NCBI GenBank assembly: GCA_036561525.1
Contig: DATBPD010000079.1
Coordinates: forward strand, 405-64,404
Origin: Candidatus Dormiibacterota bacterium
Lineage (GTDB): Bacteria > Chloroflexota > Dormibacteria > Aeolococcales > Aeolococcaceae
Length of the DNA stretch: 64,000 bases
Reading direction: 5' to 3'
Of this stretch, positions 1,232 to 57,013 are shown in pieces (position 1 is the stretch's first letter; each line of letters opens with the position of its first letter). The notes below the pieces were generated by a model, which saw nothing but the letters and a program-made list of their open reading frames with translations, did no database searches and was not told the origin of the DNA. The position numbers and the translations under genes are program-made.

Positions 1232-1375
1232 TCAGCGTGTGAAGAATGAGCGGTAGCAGTAATAGGCTGCGAGGACCAGCGACGTGAGCGCCCAGATGCC
1301 CACGAAGATGACGTCGCCCCAGCCTGCGTCCCCCGGGTCCAGGTCGGCGAGCATCGCGTGAATGGGCGAGATCAT
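1232..1375 (-). CDS. small single-TM protein (47 aa), not in the ORF track
   Basis: Hand translation: MISPIHAMLADLDPGDAGWGDVIFVGIWALTSLVLAAYYCYRSFFTR. ATG lies 1 nt after the upstream TGA. About 87% GC3 by hand count. Sits inside the respiratory cluster. Confidence 0.55.
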   Translation of the reverse strand: MISPIHAMLADLDPGDAGWGDVIFVGIWALTSLVLAAYYCYRSFFTR

Positions 1376-1376
1376 C

Positions 1377-1499
1377 TCAGTGCGACTTGAAGTTCTCGAG
1401 GAAGTGCTCGAGCAGGACGATGATCACGCACACGCCGATCAGCACTATGAACATGAACACTGTGCCCAGCAGGTCGCGTGCGAAGGTGCGTCGTTTCAT
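1377..1499 (-). CDS. small single-TM protein (40 aa), not in the ORF track
   Basis: Hand translation: MKRRTFARDLLGTVFMFIVLIGVCVIIVLLEHFLENFKSH. ATG lies 10 nt after the cytochrome c stop. About 87% GC3 by hand count. Confidence 0.55.
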   Translation of the reverse strand: MKRRTFARDLLGTVFMFIVLIGVCVIIVLLEHFLENFKSH

Positions 1500-1509
1500 G
1501 GCTGTGACC

Positions 1510-2532
1510 CTAGGGCAGGGTTGTGTAGTTCTCCCAGTGGCGGATGAACTGGATGAGCACCTGGATCTGATCCTCGCTGAGCACGCGGCTGCCCGGCTTC
1601 TGCTTGTCGCGCGCAGGATCGTAGGTGAAGTCGGGGGCGGTTGAACCCCAGTTGGGCATGATGCTGCCGATGTGCTCGAAGTCGGTGAAGCCGTACTCGA
1701 TGCAACGGTAGTAGTAGTCCTCGTTGAAGTAACCGAGGCGGTCCTGGTTGTTCAACGGCGGCCCCTTGCCACCGCCACCCTGAACGCCGTGACAGGTCAC
1801 GCAGTAGGTGTAGTAGAGCTGCGCGCCGGCGGTGAAGTCGTACTCCGGGTTGACGATCAGGTTCTGGTGGGCCCCGGTCGGGCTCAGGTCGAGCGCCAGG
1901 CGGCCGCCGTTGTGGCAGATGATGCAGCCCACCTGGTCGATGCCGATCTTCTGCGCCGACGGCTTGGAGTTGGGGTCGACGATCTTCGGATCAACTGACG
2001 CGGGCAGCGGGCCGGGCAGCACCGTGGTGGAGTCGATCTGGTACCCCTGCTTGGCGTTGGTGGTGGTCCCGGTGACCTTGAACGGCTGGAAGCCGGTGCC
2101 GGTCAACCCGTAGATGGAGTAGTCCATGGCCGGGGCGAATCCCTTGCCGGTGGAGCTGGCGACGCTGGGACCGTTGGCGATGTACGCCGGGTGGACCCCG
2201 GTGAGGTGGTTCTGGTTGACCATCCCCTGCGCGTTGGGCTCGTACTTCATGAAGTCCTGCGCCAGGCGCTGCGCGGCCAGCTCCGGACCGATGGTGCCGA
2301 TGTCGGGCACGTGGCACGAGATGCAGCGCTCGACACGGAACGTGTCACCGCGCTTGGCATCGGCGAACGTGGGAAAGATCTGCTGGATCTGGATGTTGAA
2401 GCCGCTGTCGTTGTAGTCGGACTGGTAGCGCTGCTGGATCGACAGGTAGTCGCGATCCACGCTGTCGCGCACCGCGGCAACGCCCACAAGCGCGATCAGG
2501 AGTGCCGCCAGGGCGACGAACAGCCACCTCAT
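1510..2532 (-). CDS. membrane-anchored tri-haem cytochrome c associated with the bc-type complex
   Basis: 340 aa with an N-terminal TM anchor (WLFVALAALLIALVGVAAV). Three CxxCH haem motifs: CISCH, CIICH, CVTCH. The ATG overlaps the subunit IV stop (ATGA). Confidence 0.85.
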   Translation of the reverse strand: MRWLFVALAALLIALVGVAAVRDSVDRDYLSIQQRYQSDYNDSGFNIQIQQIFPTFADAKRGDTFRVERCISCHVPDIGTIGPELAAQRLAQDFMKYEPNAQGMVNQNHLTGVHPAYIANGPSVASSTGKGFAPAMDYSIYGLTGTGFQPFKVTGTTTNAKQGYQIDSTTVLPGPLPASVDPKIVDPNSKPSAQKIGIDQVGCIICHNGGRLALDLSPTGAHQNLIVNPEYDFTAGAQLYYTYCVTCHGVQGGGGKGPPLNNQDRLGYFNEDYYYRCIEYGFTDFEHIGSIMPNWGSTAPDFTYDPARDKQKPGSRVLSEDQIQVLIQFIRHWENYTTLP

Positions 2533-3116
2533 ACCGCCGGCTTGACCCCGGGGTGGCCAAGGATGCGAGTCCAGTCCCAGTTGAACGCCAGCCCGCGGAA
2601 GAACACCCCGATCACCACGAATGACACGGCCAGGCAGAGATAGATGGTGAACAGGGCGATCGCCACCTTGCGGTCCTGGGGGCGGCGGCTCGGGTTGCGG
2701 TCAAGGTAGGGCGTGAGGATCATGAAGATGATCACGAAGCTCGGGAAGGCGACGCCTGCCATGACCGGCGGGAACCGTTCGAGGAGCTCCTGGAGGCCCA
2801 GGAAGTACCACGGGGCCTTGGCCGGGTTGGGAGTGATCGCCGTGTTGGCTCGCTGCAGCAGCGGGGCGTTGACCTGGATCGACACGGCGAGCAGGAAGAT
2901 GAAGGCGGCGAGGCCGGCCAGGAACTCCTTCCAGACCAGGGCCGGGAAGGTGACCACGGTCTCCTCCTCCTCGCGGCGGCGAACCACCAGCGGGGTGGCG
3001 GCAAGCTCCGGGCCGGTTCCGCGTGGTCGCGGGGTGCGAACCGGCACGGCCCTGCGGGTGGGCAGGGGCGGCGGTTCTCCGCTGCCACCAGGGGTGCCGC
3101 CGATCACGGTCGCCAT
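2529..3116 (-). CDS. cytochrome b6f-type subunit IV (cytochrome b C-terminal domain)
   Basis: 195 aa with the PNPAKAPWYFLGLQELL motif and three TM helices. Pro/Arg-rich N-terminal extension. Starts 3 nt after the cytochrome b6 stop. Confidence 0.85.
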   Translation of the reverse strand: MATVIGGTPGGSGEPPPLPTRRAVPVRTPRPRGTGPELAATPLVVRRREEEETVVTFPALVWKEFLAGLAAFIFLLAVSIQVNAPLLQRANTAITPNPAKAPWYFLGLQELLERFPPVMAGVAFPSFVIIFMILTPYLDRNPSRRPQDRKVAIALFTIYLCLAVSFVVIGVFFRGLAFNWDWTRILGHPGVKPAV

Positions 3117-3119
3117 CGC

Positions 3120-3851
3120 TCAGAGGCCTCCTGTGAACCCGTCTTTGCGCACGCGCCAGAAGTGTATGACCATCAGGATGAACCCGATGAGGGGCAGGGC
3201 GACGACATGTAAGACATAGAAGCGTATGAGCGCGCCCTGACCCACGTTGCGGCCGCCGAGCAACAGGTAGCGGGTGTAGGGCCCCGCGATCGGCGCGTAC
3301 TTGGCCATGTTGGTGCCGACCGTGATCGCCCAGACCGCGAGCTGGTCCCACGGCAGCAGATAGCCAGAGAAGGAAAGCAGCAGCGTGGTCAGGAGGAGCA
3401 GCGTGCCGATCCCCCAGTTGAACTCCCGGGGTGGCTTGTACGCTCCCTGGTAGAAGACGCGGGCCATATGCAGCCAGACGGTGACCACCATCCCGTGGGC
3501 GGCCCAGCGGTGGAGGTTGCGGATCACCAGGCCGAACGTGGCGACGAACTGCAGGTCCTTGATGTTCTGGTAGGCCTGGTCCACTGAGGGTATGTAATAG
3601 AACATCAGGAAGAGCCCGCTGATGGTCAGCAGGATGAACAGGAAGAAGGAGAGGCCGCCGAGGCACAGCGTGTAGCTCACCCGGATCGCCGACTTCTTCA
3701 CGCGCACCGGGTGGATGTGCAGGAAAAAGTTGGTCAGCGCCGTGCGGGCGGCCACCTTGTCGGTGGTGGGCAGCCCGTGCCGGAAGATCGAGCCCCACAC
3801 CTGGGACGCGAACGCGCGCAGTGGATTGCCCTCGGTCGGACGAGCGCTCAC
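3120..3851 (-). CDS. qcrB: cytochrome b6-type cytochrome b (N-terminal domain protein)
   Basis: 243 aa. Haem-ligand His pairs are NLH-x13-H (helix B) and VLH-x14-H (helix D). This 14/15 spacing is typical of b6-type rather than long cytochrome b proteins. Confidence 0.9.
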
Positions 3852-3890
3852 CGCACCTCCCCCATCGGTCCGTTCTCTCCCATCTCCGTC

Positions 3891-4553
3891 CTACACCCCG
3901 ATCGTCTGGTCGTTGCTCTTGCCGGTCTTCGGGTCAAGGCGCCAGGTGGGGACGCTGCTGTCGCCGGCCTGGCGGTAGACGGTGATGTCCCCCCGGTTGA
4001 CGACGAAGTGCTTGTCCGGTGCGAGCTGGATGTTCACCCAGTCCATCGGCCTCGGCGCCGGCCCGTAAAAATTCGTCGAGTCGATGTAGTAACGGCTGCC
4101 GTGGCACGGGCACGCCCAGCCGTTGCGACTCGAGATGGCGCCGGCCTCGGCGCTGTAGTGCCGGGCGACGACGGTCGACTTGTCGTCGACGCCGGTTCCG
4201 TTGGTGACGTCGCTGACGTAGTTGGGTGTGCACCCCAGGTGGGTGCACACCAGGTAGACGGCGTAGATCCCGGTCGAGTCCAGCACGACGGTGACCCGGT
4301 TGGCAGTCTCGCTGAGGACGTTGACCTTGAGGGTGCCGTTGCCGGTCAGGTCGTCGACTGTGAAGCCCGTCTTGAACTCAGGCGGCGACTCGAGGGTGGC
4401 CGCAGGGAACATGAACTTCAACAGCTCGATGCCGCCGAACAGGGTGGCGCCGACCGCTCCGACTGTGCCGACCAGCAACAGGAATTGCCGGCGCGTCGTC
4501 TCGACGCGCGAGCGCATCCTGCCGCGGGGCGAGTCGTACGGGTTCAGCGCCAT
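3891..4553 (-). CDS. qcrA: Rieske 2Fe-2S subunit of the bc-type complex
   Basis: 220 aa with a twin-arginine signal (TRRQFLLLVG). Rieske boxes CTHLGC and CPCHGS. GAGG Shine-Dalgarno sequence upstream of the ATG. Confidence 0.9.
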   Translation of the reverse strand: MALNPYDSPRGRMRSRVETTRRQFLLLVGTVGAVGATLFGGIELLKFMFPAATLESPPEFKTGFTVDDLTGNGTLKVNVLSETANRVTVVLDSTGIYAVYLVCTHLGCTPNYVSDVTNGTGVDDKSTVVARHYSAEAGAISSRNGWACPCHGSRYYIDSTNFYGPAPRPMDWVNIQLAPDKHFVVNRGDITVYRQAGDSSVPTWRLDPKTGKSNDQTIGV

Positions 4554-4589
4554 GAGAGCCTCAAGACGGGGAGAACGGCGACTGGCTTG

Positions 4590-4595
4590 ATTCTA
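4590..4595 (-). promoter_or_regulatory. candidate -10 hexamer TAGAAT upstream of the Rieske gene
   Basis: The minus strand reads TAGAAT, 36 nt upstream of the Rieske ATG. No convincing -35 element seen. Confidence 0.3.
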
Positions 4596-39364: not shown

Positions 39365-40522
39365 TCAGTCGGCGACGGGTGTGACCGGATGCGCGACCGG
39401 TTCGGTCGCGTTCACATGCTTGTGGCTACGCCCATTGCCCCCGGTGTCCGGGACGGCGTCGATGAACTGCTCGGTGAGCTCACGGGCTTGGGAATCCGAC
39501 ACCTGGCGGGGCGGCGACTTCATGAAGTAGCTTGACGGCCCCTCGAGCGAGCCGGTGAGGCCGCGGTCGATGCCGAGCTTGCAGCAGCGCACCGCGTCGA
39601 TGACCACCCCGGCGCTGTTGGGCGAGTCGTGCACCTCGAGCTTCAACTCCATGTTGAGAGGCACGTCGCCGAAGGACTTTCCCTCGATCCGGATGTACGC
39701 CCACTTGCGGTCGTTGAGCCAGGGCACGTAGTCCGACGGGCCGACATGGATGTTGCGCTCGGCCATGGGGTGCTCGAGCTGGGACTGCACCGCGTTGGTC
39801 TTGCTGATCTTCTTGCTCTGCAGGCGCTCGCGCTCCAGCATGTTGAGGAAGTCGGTGTTGCCGCCGAAGTTGAGCTGGTACATGTTCTCGATCTCAACGC
39901 CGCGGTCGCGGAAGAGCCGGGTCAGCACGCGGTGCATGATCGTGGCGCCGACCTGCGACTTGATGTCGTCGCCGATGATGCAGGCGCCGGCCTTCTCGAA
40001 GCGGCGCTGCCAGTACTCCTCGCGGGCGATGAACACCGGCATGCAATTGACCATCGCGCAGCCTGCGGTGAGGATCTGCTCGGTGTACCAGCGGGTGGCC
40101 TCCTCGCTGCCGACCGGCAGGTAGTTGATGACCACGTCGGTGTTGGTGCTCTTGAGCACGTCGACGATGTCGACCGTCGAGCCGGGAGCCTTGGTGATGA
40201 CCTCGGAGAGGTACTTGCCGAGACCGTCGTGGGTCATGCCCCGCTGCACGGCCACACCGAGGTGGGGGACGTCGCTGAACTTCACGGTGTTGTTCTGACC
40301 GCTGAAGATGGCCTCGCTGACGTCCTTGCCCACCTTCTCGACGTCGATGTCGAACGCGGCGGAGATCTCGATGTCGCTGATGTGGTAACCGCCGAGGTTG
40401 ACGTGCATCAGGCCGGGCACCACCGCGTCGGCGTCGGCATTCTTGTAGTACTCGAGGCCCTGCACGAACGACGATGCGCAGTTGCCTACCCCGATGATGG
40501 CCACCCTGACCTTGTTGCTCAT
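39365..40522 (-). CDS. ino1: myo-inositol-1-phosphate (inositol-3-phosphate) synthase
   Basis: 385 aa. N-terminal Rossmann motif [17 protein letters not shown]. Motifs: [20 protein letters not shown]. The ATG overlaps the ArsR stop (ATGA). Confidence 0.9.
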
Positions 40523-42787: not shown

Positions 42788-43900
42788 ATGAGCCGCGCAG
42801 CCTCGCCACCGCGGCGCCGGCGCGCAACCGCCGACGACGCCCGGCTGCGCATCGCACTCCACCGCCTGCTCGATGCGGTGGACCGCGAGCTGGACCAGCG
42901 CCGGGTCGAGGCGGATCTCCAACCCGCCCGCGACGCGACGGTCGACATCGCCGGCCTCAGCTCGCTGCGTCGCGGCCTGCCAGGGCTGGCCGCGCTCGGC
43001 GTCAACGCACTGCGGCGCCTCGCGGCTGTCGACGGCGATGACGTCGCCCGGTCGGTTCGCGGCGTGGCAGACGTGCTCTCACGCCACGCCGAGCTGGCCG
43101 CCCGGCGGCGCCACGGCGAGTCCTCCGTTGACGACTTCGGTTTCGACCGCGAGTGGACGGAGACACTGGTACCTCTGTCGGCGTGGCTGTACCGGAACTG
43201 GTGGCGGGTGCAGGCCATCGGCGTCGAGAACGTGCCGGCCACCGGTCGCGCGCTGCTGGTGGGCAACCACGCCGGCGTGATCCCGTACGACGGCGCCATG
43301 GTCCGCACCGCTCTGCTGCTCGAGCACAGCCGGCCCCGGCACGCGCGGGCGCTGGTGCTCGACGGGCTGTTCTCCATGCCCGGCGTGTCGTGGTTGATGC
43401 GCCGCACTGGTCACACGCTGGCGCACCACGCCGATGCACGCATGCTGCTCGAGAGGGACGAGCTTGTGCTGGTCTTCCCCGAGGGTGTCAAGGGCACGGG
43501 CAAGCCTTACGCCGACCGCTACCGCCTGCGCCGATTCGGCCGCGGCGGTTTCGTCGAAGTGGCGCTGCGCGCCCGAAGTCCGATCGTGCCCGTCAGCATC
43601 GTCGGCAGCGAGGAGATCCACCCCAACCTCGCCGAAATCCCCGGTGTCGCCAGGCTCCTCGGGCTTCCCTACATGCCGGTGACACCGACCTTTCCCTGGC
43701 TTGGTCCCGCCGGGCTGGTCCCGCTGCCGTCGTCGTGGATCATCGAGTTCCACGAACCGATCGACGTCGCTGCGCACAGCGACGACACTCTGTCGGAGCC
43801 GGGGCGGGTGCTGGCCATCTCCGACCATGTGCGCGACGTCATCCAGGCCGGCGTGTACCGCAATCTGCAACGGAGGCAATCCGTCTTTACGCTATCCTAA
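42788..43900 (+). CDS. PlsC-family lysophospholipid acyltransferase
   Basis: 370 aa. Acyltransferase motifs NHAGVIPYD (H-x4-D variant) and VFPEGVKG. Long N-terminal extension. Confidence 0.75.
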   Translation: MSRAASPPRRRRATADDARLRIALHRLLDAVDRELDQRRVEADLQPARDATVDIAGLSSLRRGLPGLAALGVNALRRLAAVDGDDVARSVRGVADVLSRHAELAARRRHGESSVDDFGFDREWTETLVPLSAWLYRNWWRVQAIGVENVPATGRALLVGNHAGVIPYDGAMVRTALLLEHSRPRHARALVLDGLFSMPGVSWLMRRTGHTLAHHADARMLLERDELVLVFPEGVKGTGKPYADRYRLRRFGRGGFVEVALRARSPIVPVSIVGSEEIHPNLAEIPGVARLLGLPYMPVTPTFPWLGPAGLVPLPSSWIIEFHEPIDVAAHSDDTLSEPGRVLAISDHVRDVIQAGVYRNLQRRQSVFTLS

Positions 43901-43907
43901 CCCGCCC

Positions 43908-43981
43908 CCCAGGGTAGCCAAGCTGGTTAAGGCAACGGTCTGTAAAACCGTGTATCGATGGTTCGAGTCCATCCCCTGGGA
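43908..43981 (+). tRNA. tRNA-Tyr (anticodon GUA), class I architecture with a 5-nt variable loop
   Basis: Hand-folded cloverleaf. Acceptor stem CCCAGGG/CCCTGGG. D arm GCC(A)-AGCTGGTTA-(A)GGC. Anticodon stem ACGGT/ACCGT with loop CTGTAAA. Variable region GTATC. T arm GATGG-TTCGAGT-CCATC. Discriminator A, and no encoded CCA. Confidence 0.85.
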
Positions 43982-43994
43982 CGGCTTGCCATCG

Positions 43995-45038
43995 TCAGGG
44001 AGTCAGCACCACCTTCATCGCCTCGCGAGCGGCGAACAGCTCGTAGCCGCGCACCGCGTCATCGAGCGGCAGACGGTGCGAGATGATTGACGCGGGGTCG
44101 GCTGCGCCGGCGGCGATCAGGGCGAGAGCGTCGTCCCATCTTCCGATGACGTTGGCGGTGCCGCAGAACTTGAGGTCGATGCCCTTGACGAACGTGAGGT
44201 TGAGGGGAAACTCCATCTCGGGCTCGGAGTAGACACCTATGATGCTGATCCGTCCCCCGGCGCGCACGATGTCGATCGCGCTCGTCAGCGCTGGGATCGC
44301 CCCGACGCACTCGAGAAGCACGTCAGCGCCGCGCCCCTGAGTGTGATCCTGGATGTGGCTGGGAACGTGCACCGCCGAGGCATCGACGGGGACCGCGCCG
44401 AAGCCCTGGGCCATCTCGAGCCGCTGGGCGACGGTGTCGACGGCGTAGATCACCGCGGGGCTGAACGTCCTTGCCGCCTGCACAGCCATCAGCCCCACCG
44501 GTCCACACCCCTGCACGACGACGACATCGCCCTCCTCGATGCGCGCTTCGACCGCGCAGTCATACCCGGTGGTGAAGATGTCGCCCGCGAAGAGCACGGT
44601 TTCGTCGCTCAGTGAGTCGTCGATGACGCGCAGGCAGAGGTCGGCGTTGGGGACACGCACGTATTCCGCCTGGGCGCCGTTGAGGTCGCCGAGGAACATG
44701 CCGTAGCCGAACACGCGCTGGTCGGGGCAGCGGCTGAACAGCCTCTTGGCGCAGAACCAGCAGCTGCCGCAGGGGATCGTGAATGAGGCGAGCACGCGGT
44801 CCCCCTGCTTCACCGACCGCACCTCTGCGCCCGCCTCCTCCACCACTCCGACGAACTCGTGGCCGAGGATGCCGCCCACTGACATCCCCGGGATGCGGCC
44901 GTGCAGGACGTGGAGATCGCTGCCGCAGATCGCGGTGGTCGTGACCCGCAACAGCACGTCGCCGGGTTCCTCGATCGCCGGGCGTGGCACGTCGGCCATC
45001 TCGACGCGTCCGATGTCGACGTACGTCAGCGCGCGCAT
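43995..45038 (-). CDS. zinc-dependent alcohol dehydrogenase family oxidoreductase
   Basis: 347 aa from internal ATG 45038 with a GGAAGGAG Shine-Dalgarno sequence. Motifs: CGSDLH, GHEFVGVVEEAG, CGSCWFCAKRLFSRC, GCGPVG. The rest of the 652-aa track ORF is not protein-like. Confidence 0.85.
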   Translation of the reverse strand: MRALTYVDIGRVEMADVPRPAIEEPGDVLLRVTTTAICGSDLHVLHGRIPGMSVGGILGHEFVGVVEEAGAEVRSVKQGDRVLASFTIPCGSCWFCAKRLFSRCPDQRVFGYGMFLGDLNGAQAEYVRVPNADLCLRVIDDSLSDETVLFAGDIFTTGYDCAVEARIEEGDVVVVQGCGPVGLMAVQAARTFSPAVIYAVDTVAQRLEMAQGFGAVPVDASAVHVPSHIQDHTQGRGADVLLECVGAIPALTSAIDIVRAGGRISIIGVYSEPEMEFPLNLTFVKGIDLKFCGTANVIGRWDDALALIAAGAADPASIISHRLPLDDAVRGYELFAAREAMKVVLTP

Positions 45039-49753: not shown

Positions 49754-49825
49754 GCCCGCATCGTCTAGCGGTTAGGACACCACCCTTTCAAGGTGGTAAC
49801 CGGGGTTCGACTCCCCGTGCGGGTA
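49754..49825 (+). tRNA. tRNA-Glu (anticodon UUC)
   Basis: Hand-folded cloverleaf. Acceptor stem GCCCGCA/TGCGGGT. D arm GTCT-AGCGGTTA-GGAC. Anticodon stem CCACC/GGTGG with loop CTTTCAA. T arm CGGGG-TTCGACT-CCCCG. Discriminator A. Confidence 0.9.
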
Positions 49826-54734: not shown

Positions 54735-54815
54735 AGATTGCGGTCACCGGGGTGCCCCATGCGAGGCTGAGATCATACCCGCGAACCTGATCTGGGTCAT
54801 GCCAGCGTAGGGAGT
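54735..54815 (+). ncRNA. TPP (THI-box) riboswitch
   Basis: Conserved elements read directly: GGGGTGC (54749-54755), CTGAGA (54767-54772), ACCC, AACCTGATCTGGGTCATGCCAGCGTAGGGA. The 3' end overlaps the GGGAG Shine-Dalgarno sequence of thiD. Confidence 0.9.
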
Positions 54816-54819
54816 GCAC

Positions 54820-55638
54820 GTGAGTCGAATCGCTCGGGTCCTGAGCATCGCATCGTCCGACTCCGGGGGCGGCGCGGGCATCCAGGCTGACCTGCGCGCC
54901 TTTGCGGCGGCAGGGTGTCACGGCAGCAGCGTCATCGTGGCCCTCACCGCCCAGAACACGCGCGAGGTGCGCGCGGTGCACACTGTTCCGCCCTGGTTCG
55001 TCGACACCCAGCTGGCCGCCGTGTTCGACGACATTGGCGTCGATGCCGCCAAGACCGGGATGCTTTTCTCCGCGGAGACCATCGAGTCCGTCGCCGCGTT
55101 CCTCGCCACCCACCCGGTTCCCCTGGTGGTTGACCCGGTGATGGTGGCCAGCTCCGGGGCGCGGCTGCTGCGCGAGGACGCCGTGGGTGCGATGGTCCGC
55201 AGCCTCTTCCCGCTGGCCACCGTCATCACCCCGAACGTTCTCGAGGCCCGAGCCCTGACCGGAACGGGCGGTTCGCGTCGTGAGCTGGCCGAGCGCCTGC
55301 ACACGATGGGCGCTGCGGCGGTGATCGTCACCGGGGGTCATGGTGACGACCCCGTCGACCACCTCTTCGACGGACGGCGCCACCTCGAGATCGGAGTCCC
55401 TCGACACAGCATCGCGGCCACGCACGGAGCGGGGTGCACACATTCGGCGACCCTGGCCGCGCTCATCGCCCAGGGATGGCCGCTCGAGGAGGCCGCGCGC
55501 CATGCCGCCGCCATCGCGGCTGCGGCGATCGCCCGCGGGCTGACCGAGATCGGCGGCGGCGACGGACCGGTGGACGTGCTCGATGTCCGCAGCCGTGTCC
55601 AGGCGCGGCCGATGGTCGCCAGTGGAGGGAGCAGGTGA
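54820..55638 (+). CDS. thiD: hydroxymethylpyrimidine/phosphomethylpyrimidine kinase
   Basis: GTG 54820 lies 6 nt after the GGGAG Shine-Dalgarno sequence (the track start at 54814 is in frame). Motifs: SSDSGGGAGIQADL, DPVMVASSG, THGAGCT. Confidence 0.9.
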   Translation: MSRIARVLSIASSDSGGGAGIQADLRAFAAAGCHGSSVIVALTAQNTREVRAVHTVPPWFVDTQLAAVFDDIGVDAAKTGMLFSAETIESVAAFLATHPVPLVVDPVMVASSGARLLREDAVGAMVRSLFPLATVITPNVLEARALTGTGGSRRELAERLHTMGAAAVIVTGGHGDDPVDHLFDGRRHLEIGVPRHSIAATHGAGCTHSATLAALIAQGWPLEEAARHAAAIAAAAIARGLTEIGGGDGPVDVLDVRSRVQARPMVASGGSR

Positions 55639-56447
55639 CAGAAACCGCCGACCTGGCCACCGGCGATTCGCTGCGGCGCATGCGCGAACAGCGCCCCCTG
55701 GTGCACCAGATCACCAACTTCGTGGTCATGAACGAGACCGCCAACGCCACACTCGCCATCGGCGCGCTGCCGGTGATGGCCCATGCCCCGGAGGAGGTGG
55801 CCGAGATGGCCAGTGTCGCCGGTGCACTGGTGCTGAACATCGGCACCCTGACCCGCGAATGGGTCGAATCGATGATCCTGGCCGGCCGGGCCGCGGATCG
55901 AGCAGGCATCCCGGTCGTGCTCGACCCCGTTGGCGTAGGGGCGACCACGCTCCGCACCCAGAGCGCACAGCGGATCATGAATGAGGTGGCGGTGGCCATC
56001 GTGCGCGGCAACGCGGCCGAGGTGGCAACGCTGGCCGGCCGGACTGCGCAGATCCGCGGCGTCGAGTCCATCGGTGACATCGACGACGTCGGTGAGCTCG
56101 CCCGGGCGGCAGCACGGACCCTCGGCTGCACGGTGGCGGTCACCGGCCCGATCGACGCGGTCAGCGACGGTCACAACACGCTGCTCGTGGCCAACGGACA
56201 TGCCCTGCTGGCCACGGTGACCGGCACCGGCTGCATCGCTTCGGCCATAACCGGCTGCTTTGCGGCAGTCAATCGCAAGCAGCCGCTCCTGGCGGCCACC
56301 GAGGCCCTGGTGGCGCTCGGCGTCGCCGGCGAAGACGCGGCCCGGCACAGCAGCGGGCCAGGCACGTTCCACGCCGCGCTCTATGACGCGCTCTACGCGC
56401 TGTTGCCCGACACAGTGGACGAGCGTGCGAAGGTCAGCAGCCGATGA
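55635..56447 (+). CDS. thiM: hydroxyethylthiazole kinase
   Basis: GTG 55635 overlaps the thiD stop (GTGA). Motifs: PLVHQITNFVVMNETANATLAIGA, VLDPVG, TGTGC. Confidence 0.85.
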   Translation: MTETADLATGDSLRRMREQRPLVHQITNFVVMNETANATLAIGALPVMAHAPEEVAEMASVAGALVLNIGTLTREWVESMILAGRAADRAGIPVVLDPVGVGATTLRTQSAQRIMNEVAVAIVRGNAAEVATLAGRTAQIRGVESIGDIDDVGELARAAARTLGCTVAVTGPIDAVSDGHNTLLVANGHALLATVTGTGCIASAITGCFAAVNRKQPLLAATEALVALGVAGEDAARHSSGPGTFHAALYDALYALLPDTVDERAKVSSR

Positions 56448-57013
56448 GGCTGCATGCCGTGGTCGACGATGTCGACGTCGCCGAGCGCGCGGTCGCCGCC
56501 GGTGCCACCGTTGTGCAGGTGCGGCTCAAGGACGCGGGCACCGCCGCACGCGCCGCGATGGGGCTCCGGCTGCGCCACCTTCCGGCCATGCTCGTCATCA
56601 ACGATGACGTCGAGGCGGCACTGCGGTGTGGTGCCGACGGCGTGCACCTGGGCCAGACCGACAGCGGTGCGCAACGGGCGCTTTCGGCCGGCCTGTTGGT
56701 GGGGATCAGCGCACAGGACGTGGCCCAGGCCGAGGACGGGCAGGCGCTCGGTGCCGCATACATCGGCGCCGGCCCGGTCTGGACCACCCCCACCAAACGA
56801 GACGCAGGCGCGCCGATCGGGATCGACGCGCTGGCGGCGATGTGCGCTGCGGTCAACATCCCCGTTGTCGCGATCGGCGGCGTCGACGCCGGCAACGCCG
56901 GCCTCTGCATCCGGGCCGGCGCCGCGGGGGTGGCGGTGGTGCGCGCGGCGGGGGATGCCGCCTCCCTCCGGCTGGCCATCGACTCGGCGCTGGCGATGAG
57001 CGTGCGCGCCTGA
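56444..57013 (+). CDS. thiE: thiamine-phosphate synthase
   Basis: The ATG overlaps the thiM stop (ATGA). Motifs: VQVRLKD, INDDVE, GVHLGQ, GAGPVWTTPTK, VVAIGGV. Confidence 0.85.
   Translation: MRLHAVVDDVDVAERAVAAGATVVQVRLKDAGTAARAAMGLRLRHLPAMLVINDDVEAALRCGADGVHLGQTDSGAQRALSAGLLVGISAQDVAQAEDGQALGAAYIGAGPVWTTPTKRDAGAPIGIDALAAMCAAVNIPVVAIGGVDAGNAGLCIRAGAAGVAVVRAAGDAASLRLAIDSALAMSVRA

Follow-up and report, generated by a model that had tools for sequence, protein, structure and literature searches.

A class I tRNA-Tyr with C1:G72 in Candidatus Dormibacteria and its probable partner, an archaeal-type tyrosyl-tRNA synthetase

Introduction

The identity of tRNA-Tyr is a textbook case of domain-specific tRNA identity, split between bacteria on one side and archaea and eukarya on the other, and this split underlies the orthogonal pair most commonly employed to expand the genetic code. 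Bacterial tRNA-Tyr is a class II tRNA of about 85 nt with a long variable arm and a G1:C72 pair, and the arm is read by the S4-like domain of the bacterial tyrosyl-tRNA synthetase (TyrRS). The archaeal and eukaryotic cytosolic identity set consists of a class I tRNA, C1:G72 and A73. In nature, the only exceptions so far reported among bacteria are patchy ones, in the reduced-genome CPR bacteria. Within bacteria, TyrRS of the archaea/eukarya type has been stated to occur only in a few CPR lineages, whose tRNA-Tyr often retains the variable arm, and the paper put this forward as the first evidence of its kind, for a few lineages of bacteria (Mukai, Reynolds, Crnkovic and Soll 2017, Life 7:8; PMC5370408). 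An engineered counterpart also exists: E. coli has been made to run on an archaeal TyrRS-tRNA-Tyr pair, and the replacement is viable (Iraha et al. 2010, PMC2887954). A 2023 review of tRNA identity states the domain rule for Tyr without exceptions of this kind.

Here we describe a tRNA-Tyr gene found in a 64-kb stretch of DNA (“the window”, meaning the whole stretch at its full length), together with related genes of Ca. Dormibacteria, which are free-living, high-GC soil bacteria in or near Chloroflexota with contigs up to Mb scale. The system resembles that of CPR bacteria in that a bacterial C1:G72 tRNA-Tyr, with a body apparently of bacterial descent, occurs with a probably horizontally acquired archaea/eukarya-type TyrRS that has no S4-like domain. 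It differs in the nature of the host, and in that all Dormibacteria members seen have lost the variable arm entirely, where it is retained in many tRNAs of CPR bacteria. In addition, many Dormibacteria members have the tRNA-Tyr gene next to the TyrRS gene as a pair, and the enzymes make up one clade that is sister to archaeal sequences, whereas those of CPR bacteria represent several independent acquisitions. As in the engineered E. coli, tyrosine decoding in a bacterium would be carried out by an archaeal-type pair, but there the arrangement is artificial and uses an archaeal tRNA, while here it is natural, clade-wide, and built on a bacterial-looking tRNA body. In the full-text literature, with most subscription journals outside its coverage, we found no report of archaeal Tyr identity in Dormibacteria or Chloroflexota; the Dormibacteria sequences are present in databases, apparently undescribed in these terms.

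The tRNA-Tyr gene and its fold

The tRNA-Tyr(GUA) gene is 74 nt long and occupies positions 43908..43981 of the plus strand. Read from the 5′ end, its successive parts are CCCAGGG, TA, GCCA AGCTGGTTA AGGC, A, ACGGT CTGTAAA ACCGT, GTATC, GATGG TTCGAGT CCATC, CCCTGGG and A. The acceptor stem (CCCAGGG/CCCTGGG) opens with C1:G72 and is followed by the discriminator A73; the D stem has 3 bp plus A13:A22 and carries a long D loop; and the anticodon stem (ACGGT/ACCGT) closes the loop CTGTAAA, which places an A at position 37. The variable loop, GTATC, is 5 nt long in the Rfam alignment; G15:C48 is present, and the T arm is normal.

ARAGORN, run on the window, calls tRNA-Tyr(gta) at 43908-43982(+), and the Rfam model RF00005 matches the gene over its full length (43908-43981(+); 66.9 bits against a gathering score of 29; E = 2.2e-12). 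Neither ARAGORN nor the covariance-model folds give a long variable arm or another anticodon. A preliminary description had folded the gene by hand as a class I cloverleaf in which the first pair is C1:G72, the discriminator is A73 and the variable loop has 5 nt, and both programs return that fold. The invariant positions that it had listed (T8, A14, G18G19, A21, T54T55C56, A58 and G53:C61) were each found again on re-reading the sequence. It had also judged that the gene does not look like a pseudogene, and this is borne out by an alignment of 12 homologues, in which 99.5% of the cloverleaf pairs are standard and 9 of the 20 pairs are changed on both sides, a level of covariation reached in 0 of 500 shuffles. 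On this covariation and on the conservation of the gene in relatives, we reject the possibility of a pseudogene.

The gene combines features of two tRNA types. Set beside the bacterial pair, here represented by T. thermophilus (1H3E), it shares the bacterial host, the GUA anticodon and A73, but its 74 nt, its 5-nt variable loop and its C1:G72 pair stand in place of the roughly 85 nt, long variable arm and G1:C72 of the bacterial class II form. Set beside the archaeal pairs of M. jannaschii (1J1U), P. horikoshii (2CYC) and A. pernix (2CYA), it has the same class I shape, C1:G72 and A73. It differs from these in its A37, within a CUGUAAA loop, where archaeal tRNA-Tyr generally carry G37, and in the 3-bp D stem, A13:A22 and long D loop, which are as in bacterial class II tRNAs.

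The window gene does not encode CCA: A73 is followed by CGG (43982-43984), so its maturation must depend on a CCA-adding enzyme. CCA is likewise unencoded in several members of the window’s subclade, and most other Dormibacteria copies encode it.

Distribution of the class I tRNA-Tyr

We scanned one genome per species from 185,579 bacterial and archaeal species with a structural pattern consisting of C1C2, T8A9, A14, G18G19, A21, the CTGTAAA loop, a 5-nt variable loop, TTCGA and G71G72A73. This pattern has one match in the window and none in 100 shuffles. The scan returns 34 loci, of which 31 hold a tRNA-Tyr of the window type and three hold a second class I form. The window-type tRNAs differ from that of the window at 0-4 positions (identical in nine genomes, with 1-4 differences in the other 22). 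Most of the 31 genomes are labelled Ca. Dormibacteria or Dormiibacterota, among them those of Ca. Aeolococcus gillhamiae and Ca. Amunia macphersoniae; several more have the same tRNA-Tyr under no other label than “bacterium”, Chloroflexia, Binatia or Actinomycetes.

C1:G72 and A73 are invariant in 34 of 34 homologues, these being loci retrieved by a pattern that itself fixes C1C2 and G71G72A73, and the variable loop is 5 nt long in all of them. Across the 31 loci the genomic G+C content ranges from 51 to 75%, while the tRNA-Tyr is nearly unchanged, and substitutions in its stems are compensatory, such as the replacement of A:T by C:G at 50:64. Near-constancy over such a range of base composition, combined with compensatory stem changes, shows that the class I C1:G72 form is the norm of Ca. 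Dormibacteria and is held by purifying selection.

The second class I form is found in three Chloroflexota MAGs (L011:2874-2947(-), L019:5864-5937(+) and L025:1592-1665(-)). Its sequence is CCCGGGATAGCTCAGTTGGCCAGAGCAGCGGACTGTAAATCCGCGTGTC..., its D stem is a normal one of 4 bp, and no TyrRS gene lies beside it in the flanks of these three loci. Its presence there suggests that the trait extends past Dormibacteria within Chloroflexota, and this form has possibly arisen by a separate route.

The archaeal-type TyrRS of relatives

When the fetched loci were searched by tblastn with the M. jannaschii TyrRS, 16 of the 31 loci were found to have an archaeal-type TyrRS reading frame of 378-400 aa on the strand of the tRNA-Tyr, beginning no more than about 200 nt downstream of it. 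Eight loci, in addition to the window, are without it, and seven are too short to tell; the longer reading frames called in L017 and L032 are probably over-extended starts. The same arrangement of tRNA-Tyr followed by TyrRS occurs in some 20 further metagenome loci. (The best 120 matches to the M. jannaschii enzyme listed were Methanococcales-like only, and are uninformative on Dormibacteria.)

Like the archaeal enzymes, the Dormibacteria TyrRS belongs to the NF006330 family (the NCBIfam equivalog for archaeal-type tyrosine-tRNA ligase, cutoff 220), with 386 bits for the enzyme of L034 and 380 for P0180; P0223, a bacterial enzyme of the same clade described below, scores 411. On the bacterial family TIGR00234 scores are below the cutoff (89 against 113.8 for the L034 enzyme). 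The sole Pfam domain of the L034 enzyme is PF00579 (residues 33-349 of 378), with no S4-like C-terminal domain, and all 240 relatives listed (240/240) likewise have PF00579 only; in both respects the enzyme departs from that of the bacterial pair. The best relatives of solved structure are archaeal, namely 2cyc (E = 5e-122), 7fg6 and 2cya, with MjTyrRS at about 1e-43. In pairwise comparison the Dormibacteria enzymes are 50-54% identical to the P. horikoshii TyrRS and 38-42% identical to MjTyrRS, and they share the long-form architecture of the P. horikoshii and A. pernix enzymes.

In the complex of MjaTyrRS with its tRNA, Arg174 recognizes C1 directly and Arg132 does so through water; Lys175 recognizes G72, and the main chain at Val195 recognizes A73 (PMC1934993). 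Arg132, Arg174 and Lys175 (MjaTyrRS numbering) are invariant in 17 of 17 Dormibacteria enzymes, as are the tyrosine-pocket residues Tyr32, His70, Tyr151, Gln155, Asp158 and Gln173, and the G34 readers His283, Asp286 and Lys288. A check of the partner enzyme for the S4-like domain and for residues that read the 1:72 pair had been proposed in the preliminary description; in the relatives’ TyrRS the domain is absent and the C1:G72-reading residues are kept. With these recognition residues invariant, the Dormibacteria TyrRS appears to be built for exactly the identity set that the tRNA-Tyr displays. The enzyme does differ from its archaeal counterparts in two respects. Most of the 17 sequences have Asn, and two have Asp or Ser, in place of the Phe261 that stacks on G34 in MjTyrRS, and so anticodon reading may differ in detail from that of MjTyrRS; and the KMSSS motif has become KMSKS.

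No T-box or other Rfam element was found upstream of the linked or relocated TyrRS genes. On one metagenome contig (L041:5103-7134), a TacA-like antitoxin gene and a GNAT acetyltransferase gene lie between the tRNA-Tyr and the TyrRS; toxins of the TacT-like GNAT family acetylate aminoacyl-tRNA. A further TyrRS, P0223 (393 aa), belongs to a group that branches early within the clade of bacterial archaeal-type enzymes (4001-5182 in L042/L043; also L121 and L122). Its contig is 4.38 Mb long with 64% G+C, and the neighbouring tRNA gene is a tRNA-Gln (3725-3799(-)), with no adjoining tRNA-Tyr. Enzymes of this type might be the partners of the second class I tRNA-Tyr found in L011, L019 and L025.

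The window locus

The window has a uniform G+C content of 66-73% and reads as ordinary bacterial chromosome. Its genes include an rpoD-like sigma-70 gene, dxs, two copies of glnA, amtB, a holB-like gene and genes for a cytochrome bc complex, as well as a thiamine operon with a TPP riboswitch and an Ino1/PIM-type lipid cluster. Neither a TyrRS gene, of whichever type, nor any phage gene was found within the 64 kb.

The tRNA-Tyr is preceded on the same strand by an acyltransferase gene (42788..43900(+), PF01553) that ends 8 nt before it and serves as the upstream synteny anchor. Orthologues with 61-78% identity lie directly upstream of the tRNA-Tyr in L009, L010, L012, L018, L023, L026, L027, L028 and L031. 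No sigma-70-like promoter was found in 43500-44300 and no terminator-like site around the tRNA-Tyr; read-through from the acyltransferase gene is a possible source of its transcription. On the downstream side a gap of 13 nt (43982..43994) separates the tRNA-Tyr from the stop codon of a convergent zinc alcohol dehydrogenase (ADH) gene (43995..45038(-), Pfam ADH_N/ADH_zinc_N). Orthologues of this second anchor, 61-92% identical, follow the tRNA-Tyr, or the tRNA-Tyr and TyrRS, in 11 loci. The gap corresponds to the slot that the archaeal-type TyrRS gene occupies in relatives with the presumed ancestral gene order. The same locus with the same tRNA has been assembled independently in several JGI metagenomes.

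Synteny around the myo-inositol-1-phosphate synthase gene (Ino1, 39365..40522(-), PF01658), part of a phosphatidylinositol-mannoside-type cluster, places the window among Aeolococcales-like Dormibacteria. The window Ino1 is 94.7% identical to that of Ca. Amunia macphersoniae (L012), where the locus edge limits the match to about 225 aa, and 77-91% identical to those of other Dormibacteria loci. The cytochrome bc-type operon (1510-4592(-)) encodes a split cytochrome b, a Rieske protein and a c-type cytochrome. Here cytochrome b is divided into an N-terminal part resembling b6 and a second, separate part resembling subunit IV, which is the b6-type layout and not the fused actinobacterial QcrB; this layout fits a Chloroflexota-related lineage, although the lipid cluster looks actinobacterial. 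The TPP riboswitch (54738-54830(+), RF00059, 62.9 bits against 54.3) is directly upstream of thiD (54811-55638), and thiE lies further on (56387-57013). The only other tRNA gene of the window is an ordinary tRNA-Glu(UUC) (49754-49825(+), RF00005, 64.1 bits).

Unlinking and relocation of the TyrRS gene

Two gene orders are found around the tRNA-Tyr. In L009, L014, L017 and L031 the order is acyltransferase, tRNA-Tyr, TyrRS and ADH(-), which is likely the ancestral one, judging from the sequenced loci. In the window and in L010, L012, L018, L020, L023, L027 and L038 the order is acyltransferase, tRNA-Tyr and ADH(-), with the TyrRS slot empty. In the comparison of orthologous loci that the preliminary description had called for, the tRNA-Tyr is conserved throughout, and the TyrRS adjoins it in 16 of 31 loci and is absent from the slot in the window’s subclade.

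The enzyme is nevertheless present in that subclade. Ca. Amunia macphersoniae (GCA_016464795.1; order Ca. Aeolococcales) has its tRNA-Tyr on contig JAEKNN010000023 (L012) and an archaeal-type TyrRS, P0180, on the separate contig JAEKNN010000009; the tryptophanyl-tRNA synthetase (TrpRS) encoded near P0180 is bacterial-type (TIGR00233, 301 bits). In 26 of 26 fetched subclade loci (L044-L063, L135-L139 and one place without DNA), a TyrRS 82-87% identical to P0180 is followed by a gene of the LDcluster4 family, and after this, wherever the contig reaches far enough, come a bacterial-type TrpRS, a hydrolase and, in some, a dodecin. The constancy of this neighbourhood across all 26 loci indicates that the subclade has kept the archaeal-type TyrRS and has moved its gene. 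The arrangement (L044:4001-6679, and likewise L045-L063 and L135-L139) has the TyrRS two genes from the TrpRS, with the LDcluster4-family gene between them, and makes neighbours of two class Ic synthetases of different domain origin.

For the population of the window itself, look-ups of TyrRS relatives and a metagenome scan yielded no TyrRS from samples 3300035110, 174, 175, 177, 694 and 697. Its close relatives point to an archaeal-type TyrRS in the window organism as well.

Origin of the enzyme and of the tRNA body

We built a quick neighbour-joining tree of 120 TyrRS sequences, which carries no support values and names no donor. In this tree the archaeal-type TyrRS of high-GC bacteria form one clade, whose sister is a group of low-GC metagenome sequences with 54-59% identity; one of these low-GC sequences is on a contig that encodes the DP2 subunit of archaeal PolD. 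The P. horikoshii TyrRS is placed just outside the bacterial clade and its low-GC sister group. Because the bacterial enzymes form a single clade that is sister to archaeal sequences, the tree suggests one ancient transfer of TyrRS from archaea. TyrRS genes linked to tRNA-Tyr occur on several of the early branches, with those that are unlinked nested, a distribution that fits linkage as the older state.

The body of the tRNA has a different look. Its A37 within the CUGUAAA loop and its class II-like D arm are bacterial in appearance, and the anticodon and T arms are almost base for base those of T. thermophilus tRNA-Tyr, a resemblance that we treat as a lead only. The likening of the D arm to bacterial class II tRNAs, made in the preliminary description, stands as far as the 3-bp stem, A13:A22 and the long D loop are concerned, and such an arm fits a bacterial tRNA that was later remodelled; descent of the body from a bacterial class II tRNA-Tyr is the reading that we infer from these features.

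Tyrosine decoding in Dormibacteria

Taken together, these observations make it very probable that the window tRNA-Tyr is the working tyrosine tRNA of an Aeolococcales-like member of Ca. Dormibacteria, and that the class decodes tyrosine with an archaeal-type pair. The charging enzyme would be an archaeal “long”-form TyrRS of about 378-387 aa, with catalytic and anticodon-binding domains and no S4-like domain, that reads C1:G72 by means of Arg132, Arg174 and Lys175, reads A73 as well, and recognizes G34 through His283 and Asp286. Since an enzyme of this type never contacts a long variable arm, a tRNA-Tyr with C1:G72, A73 and a variable loop of just 5 nt would be what it is expected to leave. 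Most likely the TyrRS came from archaea in a single acquisition close to the base of the clade, and its gene would have been placed or kept directly downstream of the tRNA-Tyr as a gene pair. In the window’s subclade it would later have moved beside the bacterial-type TrpRS, leaving the tRNA-Tyr between the acyltransferase and ADH genes. The archaeal-type TyrRS presumably charges this tRNA-Tyr, and the pair is probably the cell’s only tyrosine system.

We hold with less assurance, as somewhat better than an even proposition, a stronger form of this reading: that in a whole class of free-living soil bacteria, bacterial Tyr charging has been fully and permanently replaced by the archaeal-type TyrRS, and that the bacteria’s own class II tRNA-Tyr was converted in place to class I when its variable arm was deleted and its first base pair flipped.

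The preliminary description had left two possibilities side by side, and they fare differently. The first, that Tyr identity has been rewired together with a matching TyrRS, is supported by the clade-wide tRNA-Tyr and the 16 linked archaeal-type enzymes. It had spoken of a co-adapted TyrRS; a matching enzyme is indeed found, but in place of a co-adapted bacterial enzyme it is a horizontally acquired archaeal-type one. The second, an additional horizontally acquired or non-canonical GUA tRNA, is unlikely. The description had also considered that the class I C1:G72 form might already be the documented norm of the source clade. It is the norm, in 31 genomes, but no paper that documents it was found in the full-text literature covered.

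An additional system could take the form of an auxiliary tRNA-Tyr/TyrRS pair that operates beside a bacterial one, for example in stress, in antibiotic resistance or in some non-ribosomal use. There is precedent for this in CPR genomes that hold two forms of tRNA-Tyr or tRNA-Trp along with duplicated synthetases (Mukai 2017, PMC5370408), where the additional TrpRS-A pairs have been suggested to play an auxiliary role, and the toxin-antitoxin pair inserted between tRNA-Tyr and TyrRS in L041 indicates that the locus tolerates insertions. We nevertheless consider an auxiliary role unlikely, given that the tRNA-Tyr is near-invariant in 31 species over 51-75% G+C with compensatory stem changes, and given that the TyrRS is found in hundreds of orthologue clusters with an intact active site, which is the pattern of an essential housekeeping gene. 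The public annotation names of the TyrRS clusters listed are plain tyrosine-tRNA ligase only, and no bacterial-type TyrRS or class II tRNA-Tyr was found in the 0.89 Mb of fetched loci, which are parts of genomes.

The tRNA-Tyr of the window’s subclade, where the archaeal-type TyrRS no longer adjoins it, might instead be charged by a bacterial-type TyrRS that is indifferent to both the variable arm and the 1:72 pair. The human mitochondrial TyrRS is such a case, as it charges G1:C72 and C1:G72 tRNAs equally and its own tRNA lacks a variable arm. This is very improbable for the subclade, which retains an intact archaeal-type TyrRS with all of the recognition residues (P0180 and relatives) and a strict C1:G72 pair that an enzyme indifferent to position 1:72 would not need.

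Although tRNA genes often serve for integration and are often carried by phages, and a phage-type integrase gene lies about 500 nt downstream of the same tRNA-Tyr in L016, we give next to no credence to the tRNA-Tyr being mobile-element or prophage cargo, or mis-assembled archaeal DNA, outside the host’s translation, and reject prophage or mobile-element origin on synteny and gene content and archaeal contamination on the bacterial sigma-70, dxs and glnA genes of the contig, as the same flanking genes surround the tRNA-Tyr in independent assemblies from many samples and species, the window is bacterial chromosome of uniform 66-73% G+C with no phage genes near the tRNA-Tyr, and the L016 pattern is that of an attachment target and not of cargo. 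The L016 integrase (PF14659 + PF00589) is in a Dormibacteria-type MAG with 56% G+C, whose tRNA-Tyr gene (1339-1412(-)) probably serves as its integration site.

Implications

With archaeal-type tyrosine decoding as the preferred reading, Dormibacteria are the second bacterial group, and the first free-living one with large genomes, found to use archaeal tyrosine identity. What is added to the CPR cases is the full loss of the variable arm and the tRNA-synthetase gene pair. If the stronger form of the reading is correct, this is a natural and ancient change of both tRNA class and tRNA identity outside CPR, in which the tRNA and its synthetase were originally one gene pair; and if the trait is clade-wide in abundant free-living soil bacteria, then such a swap can be fixed and long kept in a normal bacterial cell. 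The passage from linked to unlinked genes would provide a natural series for the study of tRNA remodelling after synthetase replacement, and TyrRS-tRNA pairs could be drawn from a high-GC bacterial clade, with orthogonality in E. coli to be expected. On the practical side, tRNA annotation with bacterial models and identity-based quality checks may flag the tRNA-Tyr of Dormibacteria as anomalous.
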